This document shows, piece by piece, positions 15,460 through 57,655 of a stretch of 64,000 nucleotides of DNA; the first letter of the stretch is position 1, and the number at the start of each line of letters is the position of its first letter. Position numbers and translations under genes: made by a program. A model generated the notes under the pieces. It saw nothing but the letters and a program-made list of their open reading frames with translations, was not told the DNA's origin and did no database searches. The DNA is from Escherichia phage A221. The stretch is from sequence record ON862890.1. One strand, given 5' to 3'.

Positions 15460-15810
15460 ATGCAAGATTACAAAGAGTTGAGAATGCAGCTGGCAGTCCC
15501 CATACCAGACAAAGGTTTATACCAAAACCTGCATCATCTGATGTCTGAAGGGCATATGCTGCCTTTGCGGTCTGAGGATGGATCTCAGATCGGTTATGCC
15601 ACCAGTTGCGTAGTCTACGACAAACCAGGAGACGAAGAGCGCGGACAGGTCAGTGTGGGTTCCAGATTTGTGTTGAACAAGAAGCTGGAGGGATCAGTGG
15701 TTGACGTCAGGCCGATGATTATCCTCTACCAATTCAACGGTAAAGAGATGTTCAGGTTATTGAGCCACTTCATGTTAGTCGTGGCTCAGGCATTCAGGAC
15801 GAAATTCTAA
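15460..15810 (+). CDS. hypothetical protein
   Basis: 116-aa ORF with RBS GGAG; converges on gp25-like gene. Confidence 0.45.
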   Translation: MQDYKELRMQLAVPIPDKGLYQNLHHLMSEGHMLPLRSEDGSQIGYATSCVVYDKPGDEERGQVSVGSRFVLNKKLEGSVVDVRPMIILYQFNGKEMFRLLSHFMLVVAQAFRTKF

Positions 15811-16187
15811 TTCGTCCTTTTCAACCACACGGTGTCTGTTATTGGATCTGGATTGTTGACCACATAGAATGTGATGGTCACGCCCAGAGAATGGTAATCC
15901 TCTGACAGACTCACCGTGACTTCTTCTACCTCTGCTCTGGGTTCATACAGGGCGATGGCGTCCTCTACTTTGTTCTTCACATCTACCTGGATAGTCGGTG
16001 TCGTGTTTTCACCCAGCAGCCCATAAAGCCCCGCGCCGATCCCAGGATAAGTGGGCCAGTCCCCGACTGAAGACATGACGATATTCCGCACGGATTGTAA
16101 GACAGCATACACACCTGATTTCATGGTGACATCTTTGGTCACTGGATGCATGCCGAACTTCAGATCGACATCTTTATACTCTTTCAT
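15807..16187 (-). CDS. 25: baseplate wedge protein, gp25/GPW lysozyme-like family
   Basis: 126 aa; motif ALYEPRAEV and C-terminal NNPDPI similar to T4 gp25 RNYEPRIDK ... DNPDDI; RBS GAGAGG. Confidence 0.65.
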   Translation of the reverse strand: MKEYKDVDLKFGMHPVTKDVTMKSGVYAVLQSVRNIVMSSVGDWPTYPGIGAGLYGLLGENTTPTIQVDVKNKVEDAIALYEPRAEVEEVTVSLSEDYHSLGVTITFYVVNNPDPITDTVWLKRTN

Positions 16188-16260
16188 TTCGCGATCCTCT
16201 CAGGATGCCTATAAGGAGCAGAGAGACGTGCTGCCCCTCTGCCACTAAACTTATACCAAC

Positions 16261-17871
16261 TTACTCTTTGGTGCCGAAATTACCACCATTGTCTTTTAAT
16301 TCTGCCTTGATGTCAATCTCACCCGGACCCGTAGGGGATGCAGGGGTTGCACCTGACAGAGAAGAAGCGCGACCAGCACCTTCGGCATATATGATGTTAC
16401 CATTGATCGTCTGAGCGACAGTCAGTTTGTCAGCGATTATCTCAGTCGTTAGAATCTTAGGAACCTTCAATGTCCCGCCGACCTCCAGAGTCTCGCAGAT
16501 AATGCGTAGAATATTCTGCGCTTGCATTTCCGCTAGGTCACTGAATTTCATCAGCGCTGTGCCCGCAACCACGTTGGAGTAATTGTTGGAATGCAAATGA
16601 TAGACCTCACCTGTCTTGCGCTGAACTTCAGTTCCTTTGACCGTCAGGTTGTGGTCCCCGCCGACATAATAACGCTTGTTGAACATCGTCAGGTCATAGT
16701 GGTCTTTGACGGACTTGTTGACCACATCACCATCCGGCAACATTTGCTTGTAAGACCCAGACTTATGCATCCAATGAAGACGTTCACCACCAGGGGTGTC
16801 ATCCACTTCCATAATATGCCCAGCTCGGGACACCATGACGTTATTGTACGGGTATTTAGAGCCACCCGCAGCCGGAACCATGGTTTCTCCAGTGTTGTCA
16901 ATATCCTGTACTCGTCCAGTAGGAGCCGGAGTCGGTTGTTCCTTTGGAGTACGATCTGGGATAGGTTCTGACCATTTACCATTCTGCTGCGCAGGCACGG
17001 CTGTGGCTGTGTTAGCAGGACCAGGCCAACGATATCCCAAGACCGAAGAACGTCTGAAACGACTAACCTTCACTGAATCGGATTGGTTGCCACCAATACA
17101 CCAGACATAGTTTGCATCGAACTTCTGCACAAACGCTACGTGTCCAAATGTAGGGTTGTTACCACGCCGGAAGACTACGATAGCGCCATATTGTGGTGCT
17201 GACAGTGGAGTGCCCCATGTAAGGTAAGATCGGGCAAGAGCGGAGCGTGTAGACGTGTATCCAGCCTGTATCATAACCCAACCCACGAACGCCGCACACC
17301 ACGACACTTCATCTTCAGAAGCACCAAGGGAGGTTGTCTTGTGATATTCTATAATGCGCGGGTTGTTGTTGAACTTTCCGGCATACTCCTTGATACCTAA
17401 TTCGCCACGAGCGATTGTCATCCACTTCTCTGGATCATACCCGCCAACAGGTGGTTGTGGATCTGGTTGTGGTTCGTCTTCTTGTTTCACAGGAACGTCA
17501 GTGACAGCGTTGTACGCCTGACGTTCTACAGATTGAACGACCTGCCCGAGAGCCAGTGGGTTTGTGTCGGCACCATCAGTAGGACTTGAACCAGTCCAAG
17601 TCCAGGTGATGCGTAAATTCTGGTATGCTTCGTCAAGGGCGAACCCCATAACCTCAGTGCCAGGAATGATACCCGTTGGAGACCAACCTAAACCAGCAGA
17701 GGAGGCATTTGAAGCAGGCATCAGTACCTTCGCCCATGGGAGTTTGTCTGTAGGCAGGAGGACGGGATCGTCGGTGTGTACGCCATATATGCGAACAGCA
17801 ACTCGCCCGTTTTGGTCTGGATCGTTGACATCTTCAACGGTGCCGTAAAACCATCTCATATTGTCTAACAT
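16261..17871 (-). CDS. 5: baseplate central spike (gp5-like) with embedded CHAP/NlpC-P60-like cysteine peptidase domain
   Basis: N-terminal gp5 OB-fold pattern WFYGTVEDVNDP...VRIYGVHTDD; mid-region Cys/His pair SWCAAFVGWV / GHVAFV; C-terminal beta-helix-like needle. Confidence 0.7.
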   Translation of the reverse strand: MLDNMRWFYGTVEDVNDPDQNGRVAVRIYGVHTDDPVLLPTDKLPWAKVLMPASNASSAGLGWSPTGIIPGTEVMGFALDEAYQNLRITWTWTGSSPTDGADTNPLALGQVVQSVERQAYNAVTDVPVKQEDEPQPDPQPPVGGYDPEKWMTIARGELGIKEYAGKFNNNPRIIEYHKTTSLGASEDEVSWCAAFVGWVMIQAGYTSTRSALARSYLTWGTPLSAPQYGAIVVFRRGNNPTFGHVAFVQKFDANYVWCIGGNQSDSVKVSRFRRSSVLGYRWPGPANTATAVPAQQNGKWSEPIPDRTPKEQPTPAPTGRVQDIDNTGETMVPAAGGSKYPYNNVMVSRAGHIMEVDDTPGGERLHWMHKSGSYKQMLPDGDVVNKSVKDHYDLTMFNKRYYVGGDHNLTVKGTEVQRKTGEVYHLHSNNYSNVVAGTALMKFSDLAEMQAQNILRIICETLEVGGTLKVPKILTTEIIADKLTVAQTINGNIIYAEGAGRASSLSGATPASPTGPGEIDIKAELKDNGGNFGTKE

Positions 17872-24043: not shown

Positions 24044-24748
24044 ATGGCAAAGAATGCAGCTGGCGAAGAAGATCCGTTGCTGTTTCCGGCCGAGATGGAC
24101 GCCCCCGAGCTGGTCAAGCGTTACATCCGCAAGTACCGTCAACACTTCGGTCCAGAGGCGAAGCGTAACATCCGCCGTTCGCATGTGTGGTTCATGGAGC
24201 GTGTGTCTAAGGACGCCAACCTGAGTCCCAACCATATGAAACAGGCGTTTGCTGATCACAAACGTCCGGTACAAGGTGTGCGGTATATAGTCGGGCGTAT
24301 GTTCTATTTCAAATATGATGCTCTGACGAAGAATGAACTACCCTACTGGGATATGTACCCTCTGGTGTTCTTCTTCAACTTTGTCAAGGGTGATGGTATC
24401 ACCTTTGGAGAGAAGGGTGTGACATACCTCTGGGGGCTCAACATGCACTACCTGCCACCGAAGCTCAGGCTGTTGGTGTTTGAGGATCTGATCAAGTTGC
24501 GTAACGAACGGGCATACCGCTCAAAGACGCGTCTGAAGCTCACCTGGGAAGCCCTGAAGCGCTTCGCCAACCATCCGCTGTACAATCACTGTGTGAAGCT
24601 GTACCGCGCCGATCAGTTCCGTTCACAGCTTTACGAGATTGAGCCACAGTACTGGGAGATCGTTCTCTTCATGCGCACTGCCCGCTTCCAGAAACAGAGC
24701 CAGATGTCTGTGTGGAAAGATGCACGTCGTATGCATAAGAAGAAATAG
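24044..24748 (+). CDS. hypothetical protein (234 aa)
   Basis: RBS TAGGAG; basic C-terminus; no recognisable motif. Confidence 0.5.
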   Translation: MAKNAAGEEDPLLFPAEMDAPELVKRYIRKYRQHFGPEAKRNIRRSHVWFMERVSKDANLSPNHMKQAFADHKRPVQGVRYIVGRMFYFKYDALTKNELPYWDMYPLVFFFNFVKGDGITFGEKGVTYLWGLNMHYLPPKLRLLVFEDLIKLRNERAYRSKTRLKLTWEALKRFANHPLYNHCVKLYRADQFRSQLYEIEPQYWEIVLFMRTARFQKQSQMSVWKDARRMHKKK

Positions 24749-24810
24749 TTCTATAACCCGTTCCGAGGGATAATTCGTGAACAGGTAATCCTAAATGATG
24801 AGGCTATAAC

Positions 24811-25560
24811 ATGTCACAAATTTATCGTATGTTCGGGTTAGAGTTTACCCCAGCTCGCCTTGATATGAAACTCCCAAATTTTGAAAAGAGTGGATTCGAA
24901 GTCGGTTGTGTTCTGGGTTTCGATCGAAACGGCAGATCCGTTCGTGAACAAAATATTTTCGATGTTCTGGGTGTGAAACCGGACAGTGAAACAGCAATCC
25001 GCTTCGAAGAGGACATCCGTTTTGGTCATTCCGACCTGTACGATTATGTCCGTGATGTGATCGCTGGTTATGAACACGCTAAAGCACACATGAAGATGGC
25101 CACCGATGCATGCCTGAAACTGGCGCATTGTCTATACTTCTTTGGTCGCAAGCGTCAGAATCTCGATATGGTATTCCCATCAGAACTGCTTGAACGCTTC
25201 TCTGAAACCGAATTTCTACTGAAGCAAGCCGACGGAGTTGCTGTCAAATCTAGTGAAGTATTCAAATACCCGATAAATCTGGTTTCTGGACATCTGCTGG
25301 TAGGGCGTGATCAGGTCGACCTGGCGATTCATCCGGATATGGAGTATGATCAGAACTCCTGTCGTGCCATCCACAACTACGTAGGTGTCATTCTAGAAAA
25401 CTTGTACTCAGCCATGGAAGAAGTGATGGCAGCAGAACAACAGGAAGAAGTGATTCGTCGTATCCGCGAAGATATCGAAGGGAAGGTGAAACAGGATGTT
25501 CTAGGGGAATATCCACCAGAGTATTTCCCTGAAGTTCCAAACTTCTACTTGTCCAAATAA
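24811..25560 (+). CDS. hypothetical protein (249 aa)
   Basis: RBS GAGG; no recognisable motif. Confidence 0.5.
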   Translation: MSQIYRMFGLEFTPARLDMKLPNFEKSGFEVGCVLGFDRNGRSVREQNIFDVLGVKPDSETAIRFEEDIRFGHSDLYDYVRDVIAGYEHAKAHMKMATDACLKLAHCLYFFGRKRQNLDMVFPSELLERFSETEFLLKQADGVAVKSSEVFKYPINLVSGHLLVGRDQVDLAIHPDMEYDQNSCRAIHNYVGVILENLYSAMEEVMAAEQQEEVIRRIREDIEGKVKQDVLGEYPPEYFPEVPNFYLSK

Positions 25561-25580
25561 CTCCACTGTGAGAGGTGTGT

Positions 25581-25856
25581 ATGAAACGTTATCTGAAGCT
25601 GACGACTGTCCTTGAGTCGATCATAGAGTATTTCATCATGCAACACCTCCGCGCCGACAACATGCATTTAGACGGTTGCCTGACGTATGACCACAAGATC
25701 ATTGTCCATTCTGTTGAAGTGGTGGATGATGATCTGATGATTGCAAATGTAGAACACTGTCTGTTTGATGAGTCGGTTGATGCGTACTGTCAACCACGGT
25801 TCGCAAAAGTCGAGCTAACAAATTGTTGGCCGCCGGAAATGGTTTTTCTATATTGA
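25581..25856 (+). CDS. hypothetical protein
   Basis: ATG with RBS GAGAGG; tool start 25575 is GTG. Confidence 0.4.
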   Translation: MKRYLKLTTVLESIIEYFIMQHLRADNMHLDGCLTYDHKIIVHSVEVVDDDLMIANVEHCLFDESVDAYCQPRFAKVELTNCWPPEMVFLY

Positions 25857-36367: not shown

Positions 36368-37798
36368 ATGATCCCTATCCTTGAAACAGTCCACCGACTT
36401 CGCGAAACCAAAGGCAGCAATGCGAAGAAAGCCGTGCTGACCGAAGCATTCAAGAACAACCCAGACTTGGCAGACTTCCTGCAGTATGTCTATGACCCAA
36501 TGACGTCGTTCTATCGGACTGAGTTGAAGCTCAGCGCGTATCCTCGCATGCTCGTCCGTGAGAAGACTGATGACATTAGCGAAGTCTATGAAGTCCTCGA
36601 CCAGATGGCACAGCGCCTTGTCGGTGGCCAAAAGGCTGATGCCCTGTTGGCCTCTGTCGCCCTGAAGATGGATCCCCAATACCACGAACTCATTCAGATG
36701 ATCCTAGACCGTGATATCAAGGCGGGTATCGCTGAGAAGGGCATCAACGCTGCATTCAACGCCGCCGGAGGCACTGGACGCCTGATCAACATCCTTCCAT
36801 ATCATCGTTATGACAACATGACGATTGACCTGCTGAAGAAGATGGACTTCAAGCGCGGCGTCTACAGCCAGCTGAAGTCAGACGGTATGTTCGCCAACAT
36901 CATATGTCGGTACAATAAAGAGCCTGAGATTCGCTCTCGCTCCGGTTCCCTTATCGCAGGTGGTTCGGTTGATAACCTTTCACTGGTGTTCAAAGACCTG
37001 ATCTACGATGCGGGGATTGGTGAGAGTGTGTTCCATGGTGAACTTCTCGTTGTTGACCTCAAGTCGAATACCATCCTGCCTCGTGCTGTCGGTAACGGTA
37101 AACTCAACAGCGTGATTCAGACAGGAGAACCCCTGGAAGATCGTTATCGGGTGATCTACCGGGTGTGGGATGTTGTGCCGTATGAACAATGGTTCAACGC
37201 CCAGCGCGTGGACACCCCGTATGAGCGCCGCTTCGATATTATCCAGCAACTGTTTGATGAAGACGACGGTCTGGTTCAGGTTCAAGAAACCCGCGTTGTT
37301 CACTCATTTGCCGAAGCCGTCGACCACTTCAAAGACGCGCTGGCTCGCAAAGAAGAAGGCACGATATGTAAGGCCGCAGACATGCCGTGGGAAGATGGTA
37401 CTTCTTCTGAAGGTCTGAAGCTGAAGATGGAGGTTGAGTGTGACCTTGAAATCGTGGGCTTCAACGAGGCTGACAAGAAGGGTAAACACGCCAAGACTTT
37501 TGGCTCACTGATTTGTAAAACTTCCGACAGCCTGCTTGTCGTTGGCGTATCAGGGATCTCAGATGAGCTGAGACGCCATATGTGGGAGAACCAGGGCGAC
37601 TACATTGGCAAGATCGCCGCAGTGCTCTCCAATGGCGTACAGGATAAGACCGATGATGCGATGAAGTCTTTGTTCCTACCTCGCCTTGTAGAAGTCCGCA
37701 TTGACAAGAAAGTGGCCAACACACTGGATGAAGTCTATGCGATACAGAAAGCGTACATTGAAAACATCGCATTCCTGTTGGAGAAGAGTAATGGGTGA
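36368..37798 (+). CDS. 30: ATP-dependent DNA ligase (T4 gp30-like)
   Basis: Adenylation motif LKSDG (KxDG); 476 aa vs T4 ligase 487 aa. Confidence 0.8.
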   Translation: MIPILETVHRLRETKGSNAKKAVLTEAFKNNPDLADFLQYVYDPMTSFYRTELKLSAYPRMLVREKTDDISEVYEVLDQMAQRLVGGQKADALLASVALKMDPQYHELIQMILDRDIKAGIAEKGINAAFNAAGGTGRLINILPYHRYDNMTIDLLKKMDFKRGVYSQLKSDGMFANIICRYNKEPEIRSRSGSLIAGGSVDNLSLVFKDLIYDAGIGESVFHGELLVVDLKSNTILPRAVGNGKLNSVIQTGEPLEDRYRVIYRVWDVVPYEQWFNAQRVDTPYERRFDIIQQLFDEDDGLVQVQETRVVHSFAEAVDHFKDALARKEEGTICKAADMPWEDGTSSEGLKLKMEVECDLEIVGFNEADKKGKHAKTFGSLICKTSDSLLVVGVSGISDELRRHMWENQGDYIGKIAAVLSNGVQDKTDDAMKSLFLPRLVEVRIDKKVANTLDEVYAIQKAYIENIAFLLEKSNG

Positions 37799-38286: not shown

Positions 38287-38503
38287 CAAGAAGTACATGT
38301 ACAAGGTTCTGCTGAGCCTCGGGGTGTCACAATCTGGGCTGGCTCGTTTATTGGATTGTTCTAATGTTGTGAACTACTGGGCGAAGGGTTATCGTGTTGT
38401 CCCCCGCTCCTTCCGTCGCTTCATCCTGGTGTTACAGTTCATCAAGAAGAAAGGGCTGATGGAAGAGTTATTGCAATTTATTAAAGAAGAGGAACGCAAA
38501 TGA
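38252..38503 (+). CDS. hypothetical protein, possible HTH
   Basis: LGVSQSGLARLL helix-turn-helix-like segment; overlaps neighbours. Confidence 0.35.
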   Translation: MSLRMKELPVNDKKYMYKVLLSLGVSQSGLARLLDCSNVVNYWAKGYRVVPRSFRRFILVLQFIKKKGLMEELLQFIKEEERK

Positions 38504-39195
38504 ACTATACCCGAGCGTTGGTTTCTATCCTTGAAAGGTCTTATTCTCGCAATCTGATTGGGTATTCAGAAAGACACCATAAAGAACCCAGGAGCTTGGG
38601 AGGGACTGATACTGCGGAGAATATTGCTGTTCTAACTGCTCGGGAACATTTCATAGTTCACAAACTTTTGGCCAAGATATTCAGTACGTCTCCTGCATAC
38701 GTGAAAATCTTTTCTTTGATGAGAAATATATCAAAATCACAAACTTCACGTCAATACGAAGAGTTCGCTCTCAGAAAATGGGAAAGGGTGAAGACAGCCA
38801 ACAGTACTCCAGAGTTTAAACAAAAATGCAGTGAAAGATTCAAGGGGGTGGCGTTATCCCGTGAACACAGATCGAAAATTTCCGATTCGCTGATGGGCAG
38901 ACCCAAATCAGATTCACAACGTTCCAAATTAAAACAAATCCATTCAAAGCCTTGGGAAAGTCCAAATGCGACACATACCCGCAAATATTGGGCTTTGGCA
39001 GGAATATTCTATGATTGGTGGGTAGCCGATGGTGCCAGGTTAGGCATATGTCGAAATGTAACGATGGTCAAGGAATTGGGGGTGGATCGCGCCGAAATGA
39101 CCGCCAAAAGTTGCATACAAAGATTTCAAAAAGGATGGGTGCCGTACAATGATGAGAATTGGGTTAAGTTTTTCGAGGAAATGAAAAATGCGTGA
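38500..39195 (+). CDS. HNH homing endonuclease (intact, free-standing)
   Basis: HNH motif ERHHKEPRSLGGTDTAENIAVLTAREH; C-terminal domain homologous to 54632-54835; RBS GAGGAA. Confidence 0.8.
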   Translation: MNYTRALVSILERSYSRNLIGYSERHHKEPRSLGGTDTAENIAVLTAREHFIVHKLLAKIFSTSPAYVKIFSLMRNISKSQTSRQYEEFALRKWERVKTANSTPEFKQKCSERFKGVALSREHRSKISDSLMGRPKSDSQRSKLKQIHSKPWESPNATHTRKYWALAGIFYDWWVADGARLGICRNVTMVKELGVDRAEMTAKSCIQRFQKGWVPYNDENWVKFFEEMKNA

Positions 39196-39853
39196 GTATA
39201 CCGATTGGGAAAAAATGCAGTTCGAGCGGGCGTTCAACGTTTACTGTGTCTTCATGGCGATCAAGCTGCACTTCACCACTAAGGACTTCGATTACAGCTT
39301 GTATGGACCGATGAATTACAAGTTCGAGACGTTCTTGGCGAAGGAGGCCGTGTGCAAACAGTTTGCTCGCCTTGCCCGTCGATTCGAGTCATCACAGGGT
39401 GAAGTGGTAGAGAACTACATCATTGCCAACTTCATCAAATCACCCAAGACCTGGGTGACGACATTGCTTACACGCCAGGCTCAGGCCAATTATGATGAAT
39501 ACCGTAAGCTGTACGAGAACTTCACATATAACTTCCTTGAGGAGTTCGAGCGGGAGATGATCCCTGCCATAAGGGAGCGCAACTGCACCTTCATTGAGTA
39601 CATCAAGGGGACGGGTACAGGTCATCCACCGTTGCTAACAGACATCATCATCAAGAAGTTCCCGATTTGGTTCCTTGTCGGTCTGAACAAGATCGTTGGT
39701 TTCATTCATCTATACGATACGATTCTGCGTGATGACATCTACTGGAACTCAGAGGCGTTCTTGCTCAGGAAGACGAATGCTGTGGTTCCGGATGAGGATA
39801 CCACATATTCAAAACAGAGACTCCGTGAGCTAATACAAGCCCACGGAATCTGA
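39188..39853 (+). CDS. hypothetical protein (weak resemblance to helicase loader gp59)
   Basis: 221 aa vs T4 gp59 217 aa; only loose pattern similarity. Confidence 0.35.
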   Translation: MREYTDWEKMQFERAFNVYCVFMAIKLHFTTKDFDYSLYGPMNYKFETFLAKEAVCKQFARLARRFESSQGEVVENYIIANFIKSPKTWVTTLLTRQAQANYDEYRKLYENFTYNFLEEFEREMIPAIRERNCTFIEYIKGTGTGHPPLLTDIIIKKFPIWFLVGLNKIVGFIHLYDTILRDDIYWNSEAFLLRKTNAVVPDEDTTYSKQRLRELIQAHGI

Positions 39854-47253: not shown

Positions 47254-47567
47254 GACAATACTCCTTTCAGAGCCAAAACGGAAAGCACACCAATAATCAA
47301 CCATGTCGGGATAATCGGCTTGCAGTTCATGTGGGTTTCTCCACCTTCGATGTTCGGACTTCCTTGTATAAGAACGTGTTTACAGGAAGCTCTGAACGTC
47401 ATTACACAGCCCATCAACACAATCGGCCTGATATAATAACCCGTTTTAGTTTGCTTCACGATACATGGAGAGGAGAAGCGCAGATATGGATCCCCTTTCC
47501 GGTAGCCTGTGATTGTGACCTTCTGCACTTCAGAAGGCACTTTTTGGCCAGGAAAATAAATTTTCAT
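47250..47567 (-). CDS. hypothetical protein with C-terminal hydrophobic helix
   Basis: 105 aa; overlaps neighbours by 4 nt. Confidence 0.4.
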   Translation of the reverse strand: MKIYFPGQKVPSEVQKVTITGYRKGDPYLRFSSPCIVKQTKTGYYIRPIVLMGCVMTFRASCKHVLIQGSPNIEGGETHMNCKPIIPTWLIIGVLSVLALKGVLS

Positions 47568-48124
47568 ATTTCAATCCCCAGATTGGTGTATAACAACTCA
47601 GACAGGGTTACAGGGCGCTTGAATTGTTCCCAACTACAGTTCAGGTATTCACGTTCTTCACGCATTTCACTGTGAAGATGACCATGGATATTATACGCCC
47701 AGCGGTCTAATTGATAAGGAACGTGAGTGGTCAGCACACGACCAACCGGAGTATCACGCTCATACATCGCACCAAAGGAGCTAATCTATCCCTCTTGATA
47801 TAGCTTCATCAACATCTTGAAGCTGTCATGGTTGCCTTGCGCCACCCTGATGATAAAGTTCGGTCGCCAGTCATCGGGAACCGGGCGGCGCTTGAACTCA
47901 TCAATATTCCGCTTGGCACCCTCGCGCATCAGGCGAATGAACCCCTCAGCCCCGATGAAGCAGATGTCGCCTGCAAGTTCAAGGACGTCTCGTGACTTCA
48001 GCCCCTGAAAGATACTGTCGATAACTGCAGCATCATGCGCCTCTTGGGTATCGAACCCACGGGGCTTGAAGATCTTCTTGTGCCCAAGGTGGGTGTCTCC
48101 CAGATACTTCACAATTCCTGCCAT
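47564..48124 (-). CDS. calcineurin-like metallophosphoesterase interrupted by one in-frame TAG (47786-47788)
   Basis: Motifs GDTHLG, GDICFIG, GNHD upstream of TAG and HGHLH downstream, all in the same frame; RBS GAGGAG before ATG 48124. Confidence 0.55.
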
Positions 48125-48465
48125 TATGGTCTCCTCAACCATTCTAAAATCGGTACGTTCACAAACCCTTTATGCCAGCGATGTGGTTTATGGCCTCTGT
48201 TGTGTTCGAGCAAACACGTATCCGGTGGGACACTGAAGTGGATGCCTTCGATGTCGTAGTAATGCCCATCAATCAGAGTATACACATGACCTTCGGTCTG
48301 ACTGTAATGGATCTCTGCTTGAGGGTACACGTGCTTCAACAACAGAGCGACCTGGTAACACTTCCCGTTCTTCCCCACGTACTCGACATCCACCTGTTGT
48401 GGAAACACATCTTTGACAAAGTTTATCAATCTCGTGATGTCATTTACAACAACCGAACGTTTCAT
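48124..48465 (-). CDS. hypothetical protein
   Basis: ATG with RBS GGAGAGG; stop overlaps next start (TAATG). Confidence 0.4.
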
Positions 48466-51366: not shown

Positions 51367-51407
51367 AGCACAACCCTCCAGGTGAGGAGGGGCGAACCCC
51401 TCCGATG

Positions 51408-52740: not shown

Positions 52741-54639
52741 TTATTCATCCTCAGTTTCAAATAGGCAAACATCGCTAAACCAGGTTTTGCGGTAATCGGC
52801 GGCCTCATCACCGAAGCCATTCTTCAGTGACTGTTGATAGCCATCGTCCAGCGTGACCGTCGTAGTATACGCATCCAGGTTGTTTAGAATACGTTTGAAG
52901 TCTTCAGTGCTGTTACCGCCAAGACCTTTCAGATATTTCTTCTTCGTGATCTTCTTGGCATCAGGTGTCTTCAGGAACTCCTCATACTCTGCGTTGTTCA
53001 TGAACTCATACATCACCTTACCACACCACACACGCATGTAAGGGGTGCGCAGGAGCTTCAGTCTGCCCTGACGGACGTACTCCGGCCAGTAGGTGCAATA
53101 CAGGGTGATCAACAACCCACGGATGTGGATGCCGTCATCGTCCGCATCGGTAGCCACAACAGTCTGTGGGTAACGGGTGATATCAAGGGGCTGGCCTGGC
53201 ACTGCGCCGCCATGGATCGTACACAGGTTCTTGAACTCTTCATTGTTCATCACCTTTGAGCGCGGGGCGTTCAGGCAGTTGATGAACTTACCACGAAGCG
53301 GGAACAACCCGATCTTCTTGGTGTCGCGGGCGTTCAGGATAGGATTGGAGGCACTATCACCCTCTGTCAGCAACAGGGAGCATCCGCTGCGGTCACCACG
53401 GGCGGTCGCCGGGTAATACTTCTCAATCTCACGATAATCCCGCTTGCTGATGTCCTTCTTGGCCTTTTCAAACTCAGCATCGTCCTGCTCATTGCGCAGG
53501 GAAGCCAGTTCTTTGCTCAGACCAGCCGTAACGAACTCAAGCGCCTTGCGGATCAGTTTATCACTGGGCTTGTACGACGTACCGAACTGGCTGACAGGAG
53601 TGGTCATGCGCTCCTTGGTCTGGCTGTCAAAGCGCGGGTTGTTGATGTCGGCGGCGATGAACAAGGACATGTGGTTCTTGATCATTGCTGGCTTCAGTTC
53701 GGTCTTGAACTTCTTCACCAGCTGGGGACGAATCGCTGCCACGATCTGGTCAGCAACATAATCAACGTGAGGACCACCGATGTGGGTGGCAATAGAGTTC
53801 ACGTATGATGCGTGCATGAACGTACCGGATGAAGGGGCTACAGCAACAGACCAATCCCCGGTTTCGTCAACAGCCGAACCAGCATGGAAGTAATCAACGA
53901 AGTGGCCAAAGCGGTCAATCCGGATTTGCTTCCCATTGAGAACAATCTTCAGGCGCGGGTTACACGCAGCCACTTCAAACGCGCGGCGATAGATCATCAG
54001 CAGGTTGTTCTGGTCAAGTCCTTTGACGCCCAGACGAGCATAGTCAGGGATCCAGGCGATGGATGTGCCGGGACTGTTCACGTTGCTGATGACTGGGTTA
54101 GATTTCTTGCTCATGTTGTCTTCAAACGTCTGAGTATAAGACTTCTTGCCGTCATTAGTCGTGACGCGGAACCATTTGGAGAACACGTTGACGAGGGACG
54201 CCCCTTCGCCATTCTGACCACCGGACTTCTGGTTGTTGTACTCTTCGTCTTCGTCGTTGAAGTTCGATCCCGCAAACAATTCTGAAAATAACATTTCTGG
54301 CAACCACATACCAGATTCATGCTTGACCACAGGGATACCCCCGTTGTCAGCAACGATGATTTGACCGTTCATCGGGGAAACTGTGACGGTGATTTCCGTC
54401 AGGGATTTACCCTCAGGGGTCTTGCTGTGGTCAACACAGTTGGTGATGATTTCATCAAACTGTTTGATAAGAGCGGGGTTATATTCAAAATTGTCTTTAA
54501 ACACAACTTTGTCTTTGCTGAGATCATATACCCAAGCCATCCCGACAGAAGAACGGATACTCCCTAGATGGCGCTCTGGGCGAAGGAGTATATGCTCGAT
54601 GTGTGAGAGCTTTTTGTATTTTCTGTTTACATCAACCAT
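52741..54639 (-). CDS. 39: DNA topoisomerase II large subunit (gp39 with gp60 portion fused; GyrB-like ATPase + TOPRIM)
   Basis: GHKL motif ITNCVDH, TOPRIM LLLTEGDSA; 632 aa single ORF; RBS GGAG. Confidence 0.85.
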   Translation of the reverse strand: MVDVNRKYKKLSHIEHILLRPERHLGSIRSSVGMAWVYDLSKDKVVFKDNFEYNPALIKQFDEIITNCVDHSKTPEGKSLTEITVTVSPMNGQIIVADNGGIPVVKHESGMWLPEMLFSELFAGSNFNDEDEEYNNQKSGGQNGEGASLVNVFSKWFRVTTNDGKKSYTQTFEDNMSKKSNPVISNVNSPGTSIAWIPDYARLGVKGLDQNNLLMIYRRAFEVAACNPRLKIVLNGKQIRIDRFGHFVDYFHAGSAVDETGDWSVAVAPSSGTFMHASYVNSIATHIGGPHVDYVADQIVAAIRPQLVKKFKTELKPAMIKNHMSLFIAADINNPRFDSQTKERMTTPVSQFGTSYKPSDKLIRKALEFVTAGLSKELASLRNEQDDAEFEKAKKDISKRDYREIEKYYPATARGDRSGCSLLLTEGDSASNPILNARDTKKIGLFPLRGKFINCLNAPRSKVMNNEEFKNLCTIHGGAVPGQPLDITRYPQTVVATDADDDGIHIRGLLITLYCTYWPEYVRQGRLKLLRTPYMRVWCGKVMYEFMNNAEYEEFLKTPDAKKITKKKYLKGLGGNSTEDFKRILNNLDAYTTTVTLDDGYQQSLKNGFGDEAADYRKTWFSDVCLFETEDE

Positions 54640-55463
54640 TATTATCTCCGTAAAATTTCAACCAGGCGGGATCTTCTTTTGGTATCCAACCTTTCTGAAA
54701 TTTAGATATACAAGTTTGAGCTGTGGCCTTAGAACAAACAGAGCTTAACCCGGTTTCTTTCAACATTAAACAATAACGGTTCTTCACTTTGTCTTCACCG
54801 TTACTATACCACCATTCAAAGAATTCACCAGCCAAGAGCCATTGTCGGGATTTACCCGTCTTTACGACAGTCGGGTGTTCCCCAAGGTTGTATGTTATTC
54901 ATGGGATTGTTCTGGCGCCACATAGCAGAATACCTCTCCCTTTCTTCTGGTCGCCTCATCCGTTCGGTGACTGATTTGGTAAGATTGGCTTTGTGTGCTT
55001 CGGAGTGTGGTATCCCTTTCCTGGATTTTGACAACCTGCGCCTTGATTCGTCATTCCAAGTGTAACCTCTCAAGCTATCCGCACGTTTCTTCTGTACTTC
55101 TGGGTTCAATGAGTTTTTCTTGGATTGCTTACGACAACGTTCCTTTTGTTCATCAGATGACATCACTTCTTTCATTCTGGTGGAATTATTTCTCCTCAAT
55201 TCCCCAAACTCTTTGTTGTTCCTAGACATGTTGTTCATCCCAGTCCATGCCTTCCTGATACCGGGGTTGAGTGGTTTTGTTCTCCAAAGTAGGTGATGTA
55301 CGACATAATGTTCTTCTGGTGTCAACCATACAAGATTAGAGAAGTGGTTAGTGCCACCCAAGCACACAGGGATTATATGGTGGCGTTCTTGATAAACGCC
55401 ATCCATTTTACCTCTCTGTATTGCTCTCTGTATGAGAGCGTCTAAGATGATTTCGTATTTCAT
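54632..55463 (-). pseudogene. HNH homing endonuclease disrupted by frameshift near 54850-54857
   Basis: N-terminal ORF has HNH motif HHIIPVCLGGTNHFSNLVWLTPEEH; C-terminal ORF in +1 frame is homologous to C-terminus of intact paralog 38500-39195; total length not a multiple of 3. Confidence 0.6.
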
Positions 55464-56041
55464 AAGCCAAATTTGCTACGCCACTTTTCAACCTTGTGTT
55501 CAATAGCGTGCTCCACTTTAATGCGAGTGGCCATCAAAGAGGATCCACGGATCGCCCCTTCCCCACACCCCATGCGCGCAACATGCTTGATTAGGTCATT
55601 GACAAGATGATCCAATCTGTCTTGACTGCGATAAGGCTGGTTGCACAATCGGATAATCCGGCCATGATAATGATGAATAAGATTCAGATGCTTTTGAGGA
55701 TCACGATCAATCAGACGGAACCAGTCTTCTTCCAACAGATTAGAAGAAATATCGTTCACTGTCGCCATGTGGTTGATGACAGAGTCGATCATTTCGGCCT
55801 TGTTCAGAGAGCCGCGCATTTGGACGTCGTCATAATCCATGACGTACAGAAGGTCAATAGCAGAGATAATGACATCAGCAACTTCGCCATTCAACGGCTC
55901 GGAAGATACTATGCCATGAAACACATCAGACAGTTCACAGATCTCTTCACCTAGTTTGTTCAGAACAAACACAGGCGAACGGTCTGGGGTATGAGCAGTG
56001 CAGTCATAAGAAGCGTCGACGATAGTGTGTAGAAATTTCAT
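55460..56041 (-). CDS. hypothetical protein, possible MazG-like nucleotide pyrophosphohydrolase
   Basis: LGEEICELSDV ... GEVADVIISAIDLL resembles MazG EExxE/ExxD helices; weak. Confidence 0.35.
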   Translation of the reverse strand: MKFLHTIVDASYDCTAHTPDRSPVFVLNKLGEEICELSDVFHGIVSSEPLNGEVADVIISAIDLLYVMDYDDVQMRGSLNKAEMIDSVINHMATVNDISSNLLEEDWFRLIDRDPQKHLNLIHHYHGRIIRLCNQPYRSQDRLDHLVNDLIKHVARMGCGEGAIRGSSLMATRIKVEHAIEHKVEKWRSKFGL

Positions 56042-56526
56042 TTCAAAGTTCCTTGTATGCGGAGACGATTAATGTGGGCAATGATATAGTCCATAGAGTT
56101 TTGAAAACTGTATTTCCCGTTCTGAACATATGCATGGATCAGGGGTAGGCGACTGTACGCCAATCTGATCTTCAGACGTTCAGGCATTGTCTGGAGTTTC
56201 ATGCTAGTTGCAAATAGGATATCGCGCTTGAATTCTTCGGTAGACGGGTCCAGGACAATGAAGCGAGAAGCCGCCAATCCCTGTCCATATTGCTTGGCCT
56301 CATAACCGTCGAGCAGGCGCAGGTTGTCATCCCTATACTTCAGCCAATACCAGTACCCCTCCATGGAGTTAAACACACCATGTTCATGGGTAGTCATTGG
56401 ATGATGGGTAAAATGCGAGAGGAAGCGCCCGAGTTCCGTCTGGCTCCGGCTGTAGATGTTGAAGTGATTCTTGCCCTCTGTTGCAGGGGTCATCTTGTTC
56501 TGTGGAACGCTCATTAACAGCATCAT
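56038..56526 (-). CDS. hypothetical protein
   Basis: ATG in GAGAAACTACATCATG conserved context; tool start is TTG. Confidence 0.45.
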   Translation of the reverse strand: MMLLMSVPQNKMTPATEGKNHFNIYSRSQTELGRFLSHFTHHPMTTHEHGVFNSMEGYWYWLKYRDDNLRLLDGYEAKQYGQGLAASRFIVLDPSTEEFKRDILFATSMKLQTMPERLKIRLAYSRLPLIHAYVQNGKYSFQNSMDYIIAHINRLRIQGTLK

Positions 56527-56568
56527 GATGTAGTTTCTCAAATCAAAGTATTGCTGTGTGTAGTGAAA

Positions 56569-56766
56569 TTACTTCTTCATGCAGCCCATATAACTACAGG
56601 CCAAGCCGATAGCGGCGAATACGATAGCCAGGACAAATCGGGTTATCTGCATTTGTGGTATTGTGAGCAGCCCGATCACGTTTTCGATCGTCAGGAAGAA
56701 ACACACCCCAGCGACGACACCGAATTTGAACGAGTTTCGTTCTTTGTAGATCTTGAACCTGAACAT
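56569..56766 (-). CDS. small membrane protein
   Basis: RBS GGAGG; two hydrophobic helices; 65 aa. Confidence 0.4.
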   Translation of the reverse strand: MFRFKIYKERNSFKFGVVAGVCFFLTIENVIGLLTIPQMQITRFVLAIVFAAIGLACSYMGCMKK

Positions 56767-56811
56767 ATGCGCCTCCTGATTGAAGCGGGGAGTTTCCTCC
56801 CCTGTAACTAT

Positions 56812-57312
56812 CTAGCCCAGAAACACTACTAAAGTCAAATTAGTGAGGGCGCTGCGACCTTCCCGCAGCATTTCATGCGCAGATGCAAGGCGCTTGGGGT
56901 CATGCAACGTATCAGAGAACACGATGATGTTTGCTTTATCGATGTCCGTGCCCATGTAATGGGAGATGGTTGTCGTGTGCTGTTTCTTGTCTACATCGGG
57001 CAATGATACATCCGCGCCTGCTCGGGAGCGGAAGAAAGAATCGCGTTCACTAACGCTATGGAAGACACCCATGATGTTGAGGTTGTTCTCTGTCTGGAAA
57101 TCATAGGACAGAATCTTCTTCAGCGCGGCGGTGTGCCCAGTCTGGCGCAGCATGCGATAGTACAGTATGTTTCCAGGACAGGTGGGGTCCGTCACACCTC
57201 CCCTCGATTGGCGATCTTTCTGGATTTCATACGCATCCAGGATAAGTTGTTGGACCATTTCAATATGGGTAGTCAGGGAGATTTCGACTTTACGTTTGAC
57301 CATGGATTTCAT
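56812..57312 (-). CDS. hypothetical protein
   Basis: RBS GAGGA; 166 aa. Confidence 0.45.
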   Translation of the reverse strand: MKSMVKRKVEISLTTHIEMVQQLILDAYEIQKDRQSRGGVTDPTCPGNILYYRMLRQTGHTAALKKILSYDFQTENNLNIMGVFHSVSERDSFFRSRAGADVSLPDVDKKQHTTTISHYMGTDIDKANIIVFSDTLHDPKRLASAHEMLREGRSALTNLTLVVFLG

Positions 57313-57380
57313 TTGGTGTATCCTCAGTTAGGTTCCGCTCATGGGGAACGGGTCCATTATACACCAAATGCTGGAAATGA

Positions 57381-57403
57381 AAAAGAGGCCGGAGCCTCTT
57401 TTA
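57381..57403. terminator. bidirectional rho-independent terminator
   Basis: Hairpin AAGAGGC-CGGA-GCCTCTT flanked by A-run and TTTAG; core GAGGCCGGAGCCTC repeated at 59461. Confidence 0.55.
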
Positions 57404-57655
57404 GTCTTCATATTTGCCTGTCCTGAAGTTCCACTTTCGCGCATTCTTCAGGTCGAGGTCTTTGAAGATGTTTCCAAAGATCTTTTGGAAGGAGGTCTGC
57501 TCTTGTTCTTCCTCAAGATCCTTGGGCTTCTTGACAGGCTCTTTCACCATACCGCCTTCGGGTTTCCCCACATCGGCGGTCGTGGTTCCAGGGGCTGCCG
57601 AGTCTTCAAGGAAGTCCTGGAAGCCTTTCATGATTAGACCGCAGCCATTTCGCAA
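57401..57655 (-). CDS. hypothetical protein
   Basis: 84-aa ORF, Lys/Glu-rich. Confidence 0.35.
   Translation of the reverse strand: MRNGCGLIMKGFQDFLEDSAAPGTTTADVGKPEGGMVKEPVKKPKDLEEEQEQTSFQKIFGNIFKDLDLKNARKWNFRTGKYED

Follow-up and report, generated by a model that had tools for sequence, protein, structure and literature searches.

In Dickeya phage LIMEstone1, open reading frame (ORF) 12 encodes the free-standing endonuclease F-LimI, which has homologs among the Mob endonucleases and is followed downstream by ORF13, the gene for DNA topoisomerase II (Adriaenssens et al. 2012, PMC3296691). In phage T4, mobA is located at 60.1/39 with gene 39 as its target, and mobE is located at nrdB/nrdA (Edgell et al. 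2010, PMC2988022, Table 1). The C-terminal domain of such enzymes is presumed to bind DNA (PMC2988022). T4 also carries I-TevIII, a defunct and truncated HNH endonuclease, the intact form of which is found in RB3 (PMC2988022, Table 1), and some homing endonuclease genes of LIMEstone-like phages have been reported to "contain deletions or frameshift mutations" (Carstens et al. 2018, PMC6267328). Here, we describe a related locus in a stretch of 64,000 nucleotides (nt) from Escherichia phage A221 (ON862890.1), hereafter called the window. As the initial annotation of this sequence had proposed, an HNH homing endonuclease gene adjoins the gene for the topoisomerase II large subunit and is split by a +1 frameshift. 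Judged by sequence similarity, the split gene is the ortholog of F-LimI, and the frameshift is due to a single extra G, which is probably a real and recent mutation.

The gene, its two halves and the lesion were mapped as follows, with protein lengths given in amino acids (aa).

54632-55463, minus strand: the whole F-LimI-type HNH homing endonuclease gene, 832 nt, a pseudogene as written
54852-55463, minus strand: N-terminal ORF with an ATG start, 203 aa; residues 1-194 are native and are followed by GTPDCRKDG, out of frame, and by the stop codon TAA at 54852-54854
54880-54883, minus strand: the lesion, a 1-nt insertion that gives GGGG on the gene strand (CCCC on the plus strand), where the orthologs have GGG
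54632-54835, minus strand: C-terminal remnant ORF with a TTG start, 67 aa, encoding EFFEWW...CISKFQKGWIPKED

Both ORFs lie where the initial annotation had placed them, and it had correctly assigned an HNH motif, ERHHIIPVCLGGTNHFSNLVWLTPEEH, to the N-terminal ORF and the second ORF to the +1 frame (55463-54835 = 628; 628 mod 3 = 1). Its claim that both are homologous to an intact HNH gene at 38500-39195 was likewise borne out. The 203-aa ORF matched this paralog with an expectation value (E) of 5e-21 and 32% identity over 146 aligned aa, and the 67-aa ORF matched residues 166-225 of the paralog with an E-value of 2e-16 and 40% identity over 62 aligned aa. Since both ORFs match the same paralog, they represent a single gene split in two. 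The remnant presumably corresponds to the C-terminal DNA-binding domain. Its reading frame is open from 54898, and the sequence upstream of the ORF at 54632-54835 shows neither an ATG codon nor a Shine-Dalgarno sequence.

The position of the lesion was determined by comparison with the orthologs. In Escherichia phage vB_EcoM-RPN242, Salmonella phage vB_CECAV_050, Escherichia phage PC3 and LIMEstone1, the gene is a single ORF of 831 nt and 276 aa at the same place; in all, 31 related records have it as an undivided ORF of 831 nt. A five-way alignment of these genes with the window copy contained exactly one gap column, where the window reads CCTTGGGGAACACC and all four others read CCTTGGGAACACC. 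The same extra G was found when the window was compared with 50 kilobases (kb) of RPN242 and of vB_CECAV_050. The initial annotation had placed the frame switch at GACGGGTAAATCC, whereas the ortholog alignment shows that the indel is located at 54880-54883, about 30 nt further upstream. It is the TAA of the shifted frame that falls in GACGGGTAAATCC, 26-29 nt past the indel, and in the intact orthologs this segment is unchanged and is plain coding sequence. Thus, the uninterrupted frame of 276 codons found in the orthologs is broken in the window copy (832 nt) by the extra G and the TAA at 54852-54854. A nucleotide alignment of the two paralogs, which had been suggested for placing the indel, was not used, because at only 32-40% aa identity they are too distant for a difference of 1 nt to be placed; the orthologs served instead.

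Four further positions were variable in the five-way alignment, each private to one of the relatives, so that one G is all that separates the window copy from the consensus. As the window copy has not acquired any substitution private to it, the lesion is probably very recent. The distribution of the extra G was examined with an 81-nt query centred on the G run, which was searched against the full-length orthologous records. None of the 31 records, which represent phages of Dickeya, Salmonella, Escherichia, Yersinia and Shigella, contained the extra G. All had GGG; the query aligned to 80 nt in every record and was 100% identical to none.

A megablast search of positions 54400-56100 against the phage collection returned 188 related records, all of the Ackermannviridae type, with RPN242 (99.7%), vB_CECAV_050, PC3 and Escherichia phage PH4 as the best matches. 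On the strength of these matches the phage is assigned to the Ackermannviridae, subfamily Aglimvirinae, as an Agtrevirus-like and not a T4-like phage, which replaces the T4-like frame in which the initial annotation had set it. The orthologs are annotated as homing endonucleases, and the name F-LimI is used in LIMEstone1. When the frame was repaired, the protein was 100% identical to that of PC3 and gave a full-length match (residues 1-274, E 2.7e-66) to PHROG 655, labelled "homing endonuclease". Residues E26, R27, H28, H29, N43, H52 and H56 were invariant (alignment A1), which gives the N-terminal domain the catalytic His ... Asn ... His motif of HNH (beta-beta-alpha-metal) endonucleases. The N-terminal part of about 120-165 aa was similar to T4-type Mob genes (approximately 31% identity, E about 1e-9 to 1e-10), namely genes that adjoin nrdA in T4-like phages, which is the mobE position, and mobE of Aeh1. 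The matches to T4 proteins cover about 60% of the repaired protein, and the C-terminal domain is not common to them. Residues 173-275 matched two other families, PHROG 25551 (94 positions, E 5e-35) and PHROG 26163 (120 positions). Both are labelled "homing endonuclease" and comprise the C-terminal domain only; split or truncated copies are thus evidently frequent enough in phages to form families. A large-database protein search returned 6 matches, which are too few for a deep profile, and a sequence search of the PDB with the endonuclease gave nothing significant.

The gene is tightly packed between its neighbours, and the following features on the minus strand describe its surroundings.

55460-55463, minus strand: ATGA overlap between the endonuclease start codon and the stop codon of the MazG-like pyrophosphatase gene (55460-56041)
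52741-54639, minus strand: DNA topoisomerase II large subunit, 632 aa, with HATPase_c, DNA_gyraseB, Toprim and TOPRIM_C domains
54646-54649, minus strand: GGAG Shine-Dalgarno sequence of the topoisomerase gene, within the 3' end of the endonuclease gene, read directly in ACGGAGATAATAATGGTTGATG

The upstream MazG-like gene at 55460-56041 corresponds to PHROG 1247. At its 3' end, the endonuclease gene overlaps the start of the topoisomerase gene by 8 nt (54632-54639), as noted in the initial annotation. The GGAG sits 6 nt 5' of the topoisomerase ATG (54637-54639), and because the topoisomerase gene has this sequence of its own, its expression should not depend on the frame of the endonuclease. 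In a promoter and terminator scan, no minus-strand promoter-like site was found at 55464-56018 or within the endonuclease gene, and promoter-like sites overall were no more numerous than in shuffled sequence. The endonuclease cassette lacks an obvious promoter of its own.

This arrangement is that of F-LimI, with the same locus between the MazG-like and topoisomerase II large-subunit genes, the same overlaps and a nucleotide identity of 98-100%. Orthologs are present in Aglimvirinae and Kuttervirus (RPN242 gp011, vB_CECAV_050 gene 011 and PC3_000150), and the window copy differs in having GGGG for GGG and hence being split, and is otherwise the same. A literature search found no experimental paper on F-LimI. 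In Table 1 of PMC3296691, ORF12 is listed under "GIY-YIG" and the name F-LimI is given to both ORF12 and ORF17; the GIY-YIG entry looks like an error, since an HNH motif is clearly evident in the ORF12 protein.

The resemblance to T4 MobA concerns locus and layout, in that both are free-standing HNH genes tied to the topoisomerase II large subunit and both are promoter-less cassettes that overlap an upstream ORF (PMC2988022). The T4 insertion splits the topoisomerase into genes 39 and 60 and is accompanied by a 50-nt bypass element, whereas the topoisomerase of the window is a single 632-aa ORF with the endonuclease upstream of it. The initial annotation had named mobE as the T4 gene between genes 39 and 60, but that gene is mobA, and mobE lies between nrdB and nrdA (PMC2988022). 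With the Mob family of T4 (MobE, MobD) the protein shares the fusion of an HNH domain to a distinct C-terminal domain (PMC2988022), and it differs in the C-terminal domain itself, the host phage family and the insertion site. As with I-TevIII of T4, function is most likely lost in one phage and the gene is intact in a relative; I-TevIII is intron-encoded and not an ortholog, and the loss in the window would result from a single-base frameshift.

Comparison of the related phages showed that the endonuclease gene is present in 32 of the 188 records, and that its presence or absence varies at a fixed site between conserved genes. Phage maane has an in-frame TAG in the gene, which is annotated as two ORFs. 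In ZQ1 (MW650886.1, locus 1740-1999), 561 nt have been deleted in frame between two ATGAA(A/T)A repeats. ZQ1 retains an unannotated ORF of 89 codons for the C-terminal domain at the original start codon, and its topoisomerase gene is annotated with a later start (locus end 1641, not 1740). Phage 4HA11 has a 187-nt remnant of the endonuclease gene, and AV101 and others have an empty site with a spacer of 49 nt. The locus displays the usual life cycle of a homing endonuclease gene, with intact, frameshifted, nonsense, deleted and empty states.

The nucleotide identities along the locus and the segment that they delimit were as follows.

Window compared with LIMEstone1, another genus: MazG-like gene 77-79%, endonuclease gene 98-99%, first 240 nt of the topoisomerase gene 99-100%, rest of the topoisomerase gene 91-93%
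Window compared with AV101, empty site: MazG-like gene 97.5-99.3%, endonuclease gene absent, rest of the topoisomerase gene approximately 94%
54469-54639, minus strand: co-conversion tract, the first ~57 topoisomerase codons, from the identity profiles and the codon comparison

Thus, the element and the first ~170-240 nt of the topoisomerase gene are 98-100% identical between genera, with flanks of 77-93%, so that the element is more conserved than its surroundings and is accompanied by a co-converted tract, which is the signature of horizontal spread. In the comparison with AV101, the identity at the start of the topoisomerase gene was 76% over the first 120 nt and 85% over the next 120 nt. 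Codons 7-57 showed 20 synonymous and 9 non-synonymous differences, as compared to only 2 differences in codons 58-106, which places a sharp boundary around codon 57. Phages with the empty site of the AV101 type also have a different topoisomerase N-terminus, MSNKIDIERKYKKL as compared to MVDVNRKYKKL. As read from these profiles, the footprint is the classic one for a free-standing homing endonuclease gene that spreads together with a short co-converted target tract. The topoisomerase II large-subunit gene downstream is the likely target gene. The comparison with an insertion-free relative that the initial annotation had recommended, here with AV101, narrowed the likely target to the first ~170 nt of this gene, and the site that is recognized or cleaved in endonuclease-free alleles is probably located within this segment.

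We infer the homing mechanism, the target site and the loss of activity from the protein family and the sequence pattern. The intact element would be translated within the upstream operon from an ATG that overlaps the stop codon of the MazG-like gene. During co-infection, the endonuclease would nick or cut the 5' end of the topoisomerase gene in endonuclease-free relatives, and repair from the endonuclease-carrying genome would copy in the gene together with ~170 nt from the start of the topoisomerase gene. In the window, the extra G in the GGG run would shift the frame after residue 194 and translation would stop 9 codons further on. The truncated product is predicted to retain the HNH core and NUMOD3-like helical repeats and to lose the C-terminal domain of 82 residues. 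Since this domain is presumed to bind DNA, its loss would render the endonuclease inactive, and the window copy is most likely dead. The lesion probably represents the first step by which homing endonuclease genes usually degenerate when no target remains to be invaded.

The initial annotation had described an intact paralog next to the DNA ligase gene.

38500-39195, plus strand: intact paralogous HNH homing endonuclease gene, 231 aa, PHROG 655 (E 3.3e-53)

The gene is indeed intact, but it does not adjoin the ligase gene (36368-37798), from which it is separated by three small ORFs. Its length is the same as that of the annotated homing endonuclease of vB_CECAV_050 (24680-25375), and its last 8 nt, at the junction ATGCGTGA, also belong to the helicase-loader gene (39188-39853). 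Both paralogs therefore end with the same 8-nt overlap (54632-54639 and 39188-39195) of the pattern ATGNNTGA, which reads ATGGTTGA on the topoisomerase side and ATGCGTGA on the helicase-loader side. The identical overlaps suggest a shared cassette end or translational coupling. RPN242 (OL656110.1, ~24695-25620) shows the reciprocal situation, in which the endonuclease gene on the topoisomerase side is intact and the paralog on the helicase-loader side is frameshifted. The RPN242 paralog has G4, as compared to G5 in the window and vB_CECAV_050, and is annotated as 199 aa only. An ORF of 83 aa upstream of it has C6 instead of C5. These two changes correspond to 38401-38405 and 39078-39082 in the window.

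We estimate at about 0.7 the probability that the extra G is a real, recent inactivating mutation of a homing endonuclease gene. The alternative that survives best is a sequencing or assembly artefact, in which the phage truly has GGG and an intact 276-aa ortholog of F-LimI, and the homopolymer was overcalled in the consensus. We consider this unlikely, if by no means negligible. The following observations weigh against an inactivating mutation in such a gene. Some concern the assignment to the family: the Pfam matches to HNH_5 (E 0.0027), HNH (E 0.017) and NUMOD3 were all below the gathering thresholds. A Foldseek search of the PDB gave HNH nucleases as all of its matches, which were weak (E >= 0.3) and uninformative for the C-terminal domain; the AlphaFold2 model was built from an alignment of 7 sequences and had a predicted local distance difference test (pLDDT) score of 73 and a predicted template modelling (pTM) score of 0.33. 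Others concern the allele: the lesion is of the type +1 in a homopolymer run, and GGGG is unique compared to the 31 records. The 203-aa product has no exact counterpart on any contig of the public gene catalogue, and the GGGG pattern had no match in IMG/VR. A pattern that allowed either GGG or GGGG found nothing in the metagenome contigs of the Joint Genome Institute (JGI) and only LIMEstone1, with GGG, in IMG/VR. Since it is missing from the gene catalogue, IMG/VR and the JGI contigs, the GGGG allele is without an independent replicate. The remainder of the gene matches the consensus of its closest relatives, and a copy without secondary damage fits an artefact as well as a very recent mutation. 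Finally, in the closest relative, RPN242, the paralogous endonuclease gene and the ORF upstream of it are broken by two differences in homopolymer length. Whatever causes them, such differences are therefore frequent among the deposited genomes of this group.

Against an artefact, a run of three is short for a homopolymer error at the consensus level. When the ORFs of at least 90 aa were compared with vB_CECAV_050 and RPN242 over ~50 kb, no other frameshifted gene was found, and most of the "split" ORFs in the scan for broken genes were antisense, non-coding frames. Single-base indels relative to these two phages were few over the same ~50 kb and were mostly intergenic or in compensated pairs; the remaining differences in G/C-run length are natural alleles common to another phage. 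One such case is the hairpin GAGGGGCGAACCCCTC at 51389-51400, between the gene for the topoisomerase II medium subunit and the next gene, in which each arm is 1 nt longer than in RPN242 and vB_CECAV_050 and the paired indels preserve the stem. The suspicion of systematic overcalling of G3 as G4 was rejected, as the allele of this hairpin is 100% identical in phage 4HA11. Given that no other gene is frameshifted and that the hairpin is a natural allele, indel errors are not rife in the assembly. A lone random error would by chance have to hit 832 of 64,000 bases (~1.3%), and these belong to a dispensable selfish gene, which is where real frameshifts are expected to survive.

The only other genuine broken gene in the scan was an accessory gene of 186 aa annotated as "phosphoesterase". 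A TAG replaces a tryptophan codon (TGG to TAG) at 47786-47788 on the minus strand, LYQEG*ISSFG as compared to LYQEGWISSFG, and splits the gene into the ORFs 47786-48142 and 47564-47767. The gene is intact in vB_CECAV_050 (15750-16310) and RPN242 (gp022). As a base substitution, this change cannot be a homopolymer miscall, and at least one further gene is thus disrupted in this genome. Whether the extra G is real or an artefact makes no difference to the biology of the locus.

The initial annotation had left it open whether the gene was decaying or regulated by frameshifting. Decay is the best reading, and the evidence does not favour regulation, as the frameshift is needed in none of the 31 orthologs and the site of the extra G does not match a known slippery motif. 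Such regulation could take the form of programmed or tolerated +1 ribosomal frameshifting: a shift anywhere in the 14 codons where the two frames overlap, for example by slippage in the P site at GGG-UAA-A (54851-54857), would yield near-full-length endonuclease at a low level and act as a throttle on expression. The frames do overlap at 54852-54898, where a +1 shift at any point joins them, the GGG codon just before the stop gives the site a general likeness to that of prfB, with its "shift at a hungry stop", and homing endonucleases are tightly down-regulated (PMC2988022). With a frameshift required in 0 of the 31 orthologs, nothing is conserved on which recoding could act, and GACGGGTAAATCC is ordinary coding sequence, unchanged, in the intact genes. 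Moreover, GGG-UAA is not preceded by a Shine-Dalgarno-like stimulator 3-6 nt upstream, CCU-UGG-GGA is not a known slippery motif, and G4 is too short for transcriptional slippage. We regard such recoding as very improbable.

We give equally little credence to a functional split, in which the 203-aa nuclease and a separately initiated C-terminal DNA-binding part would cooperate, or the C-terminal part would work alone, for example as a protector that binds the site. ORFs that contain only the C-terminal domain do recur, as the in-frame ORF of 89 aa at the original ATG in ZQ1, the annotated C-terminal ORF of 96 aa in maane and the C-terminal-only families PHROG 25551 and PHROG 26163. Independent decay of a common gene would equally yield recurring fragments, the split is private to the window genome, and there the C-terminal ORF would have to start from a TTG without a visible ribosome-binding site. 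It is also highly doubtful that the reciprocal G-run changes in the two paralogs (G3 to G4 in the topoisomerase-side copy of the window, G5 to G4 in the helicase-loader-side copy of RPN242) reflect reversible on/off switching by slipped-strand mispairing or a low-level +1 recoding site; if they did, a phage population could tune the dose of a potentially toxic nuclease.

Both the element and the phenomenon have been described before, and what is observed here is ordinary gene decay or a sequencing slip and not a new mechanism. The significance of the finding is small beyond correct annotation: the two ORFs call for a single annotation, as a frameshifted pseudogene or, if the reads show GGG, as an intact gene, and not for two "HNH" proteins. 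The parallel to T4 mobA, an HNH gene tied to the topoisomerase II large subunit, is real and was already implicit in the LIMEstone1 paper (PMC3296691). As a series, the locus offers a clean textbook example of the life cycle with a sharply bounded co-conversion tract of ~170 nt, and this tract shows where the target site of F-LimI may be sought.

Two further observations were made on related records. Phage 4HA11 (MN445184.1), filed under Kuttervirus, showed strong mosaicism when compared with positions 52900-57600 of the window. In the topoisomerase gene, identity was 98.6-99.2% over the 3' part and 89% midway along; the MazG-like gene was only 73-81% identical, and the stretch 56542-57600 was again 98.6-99.2% identical. 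The record OR844942.1, "Enterococcus phage Efm 3-10" (111 kb, unannotated), contains this Ackermannviridae locus at 89% identity and is probably mislabelled or contaminated.

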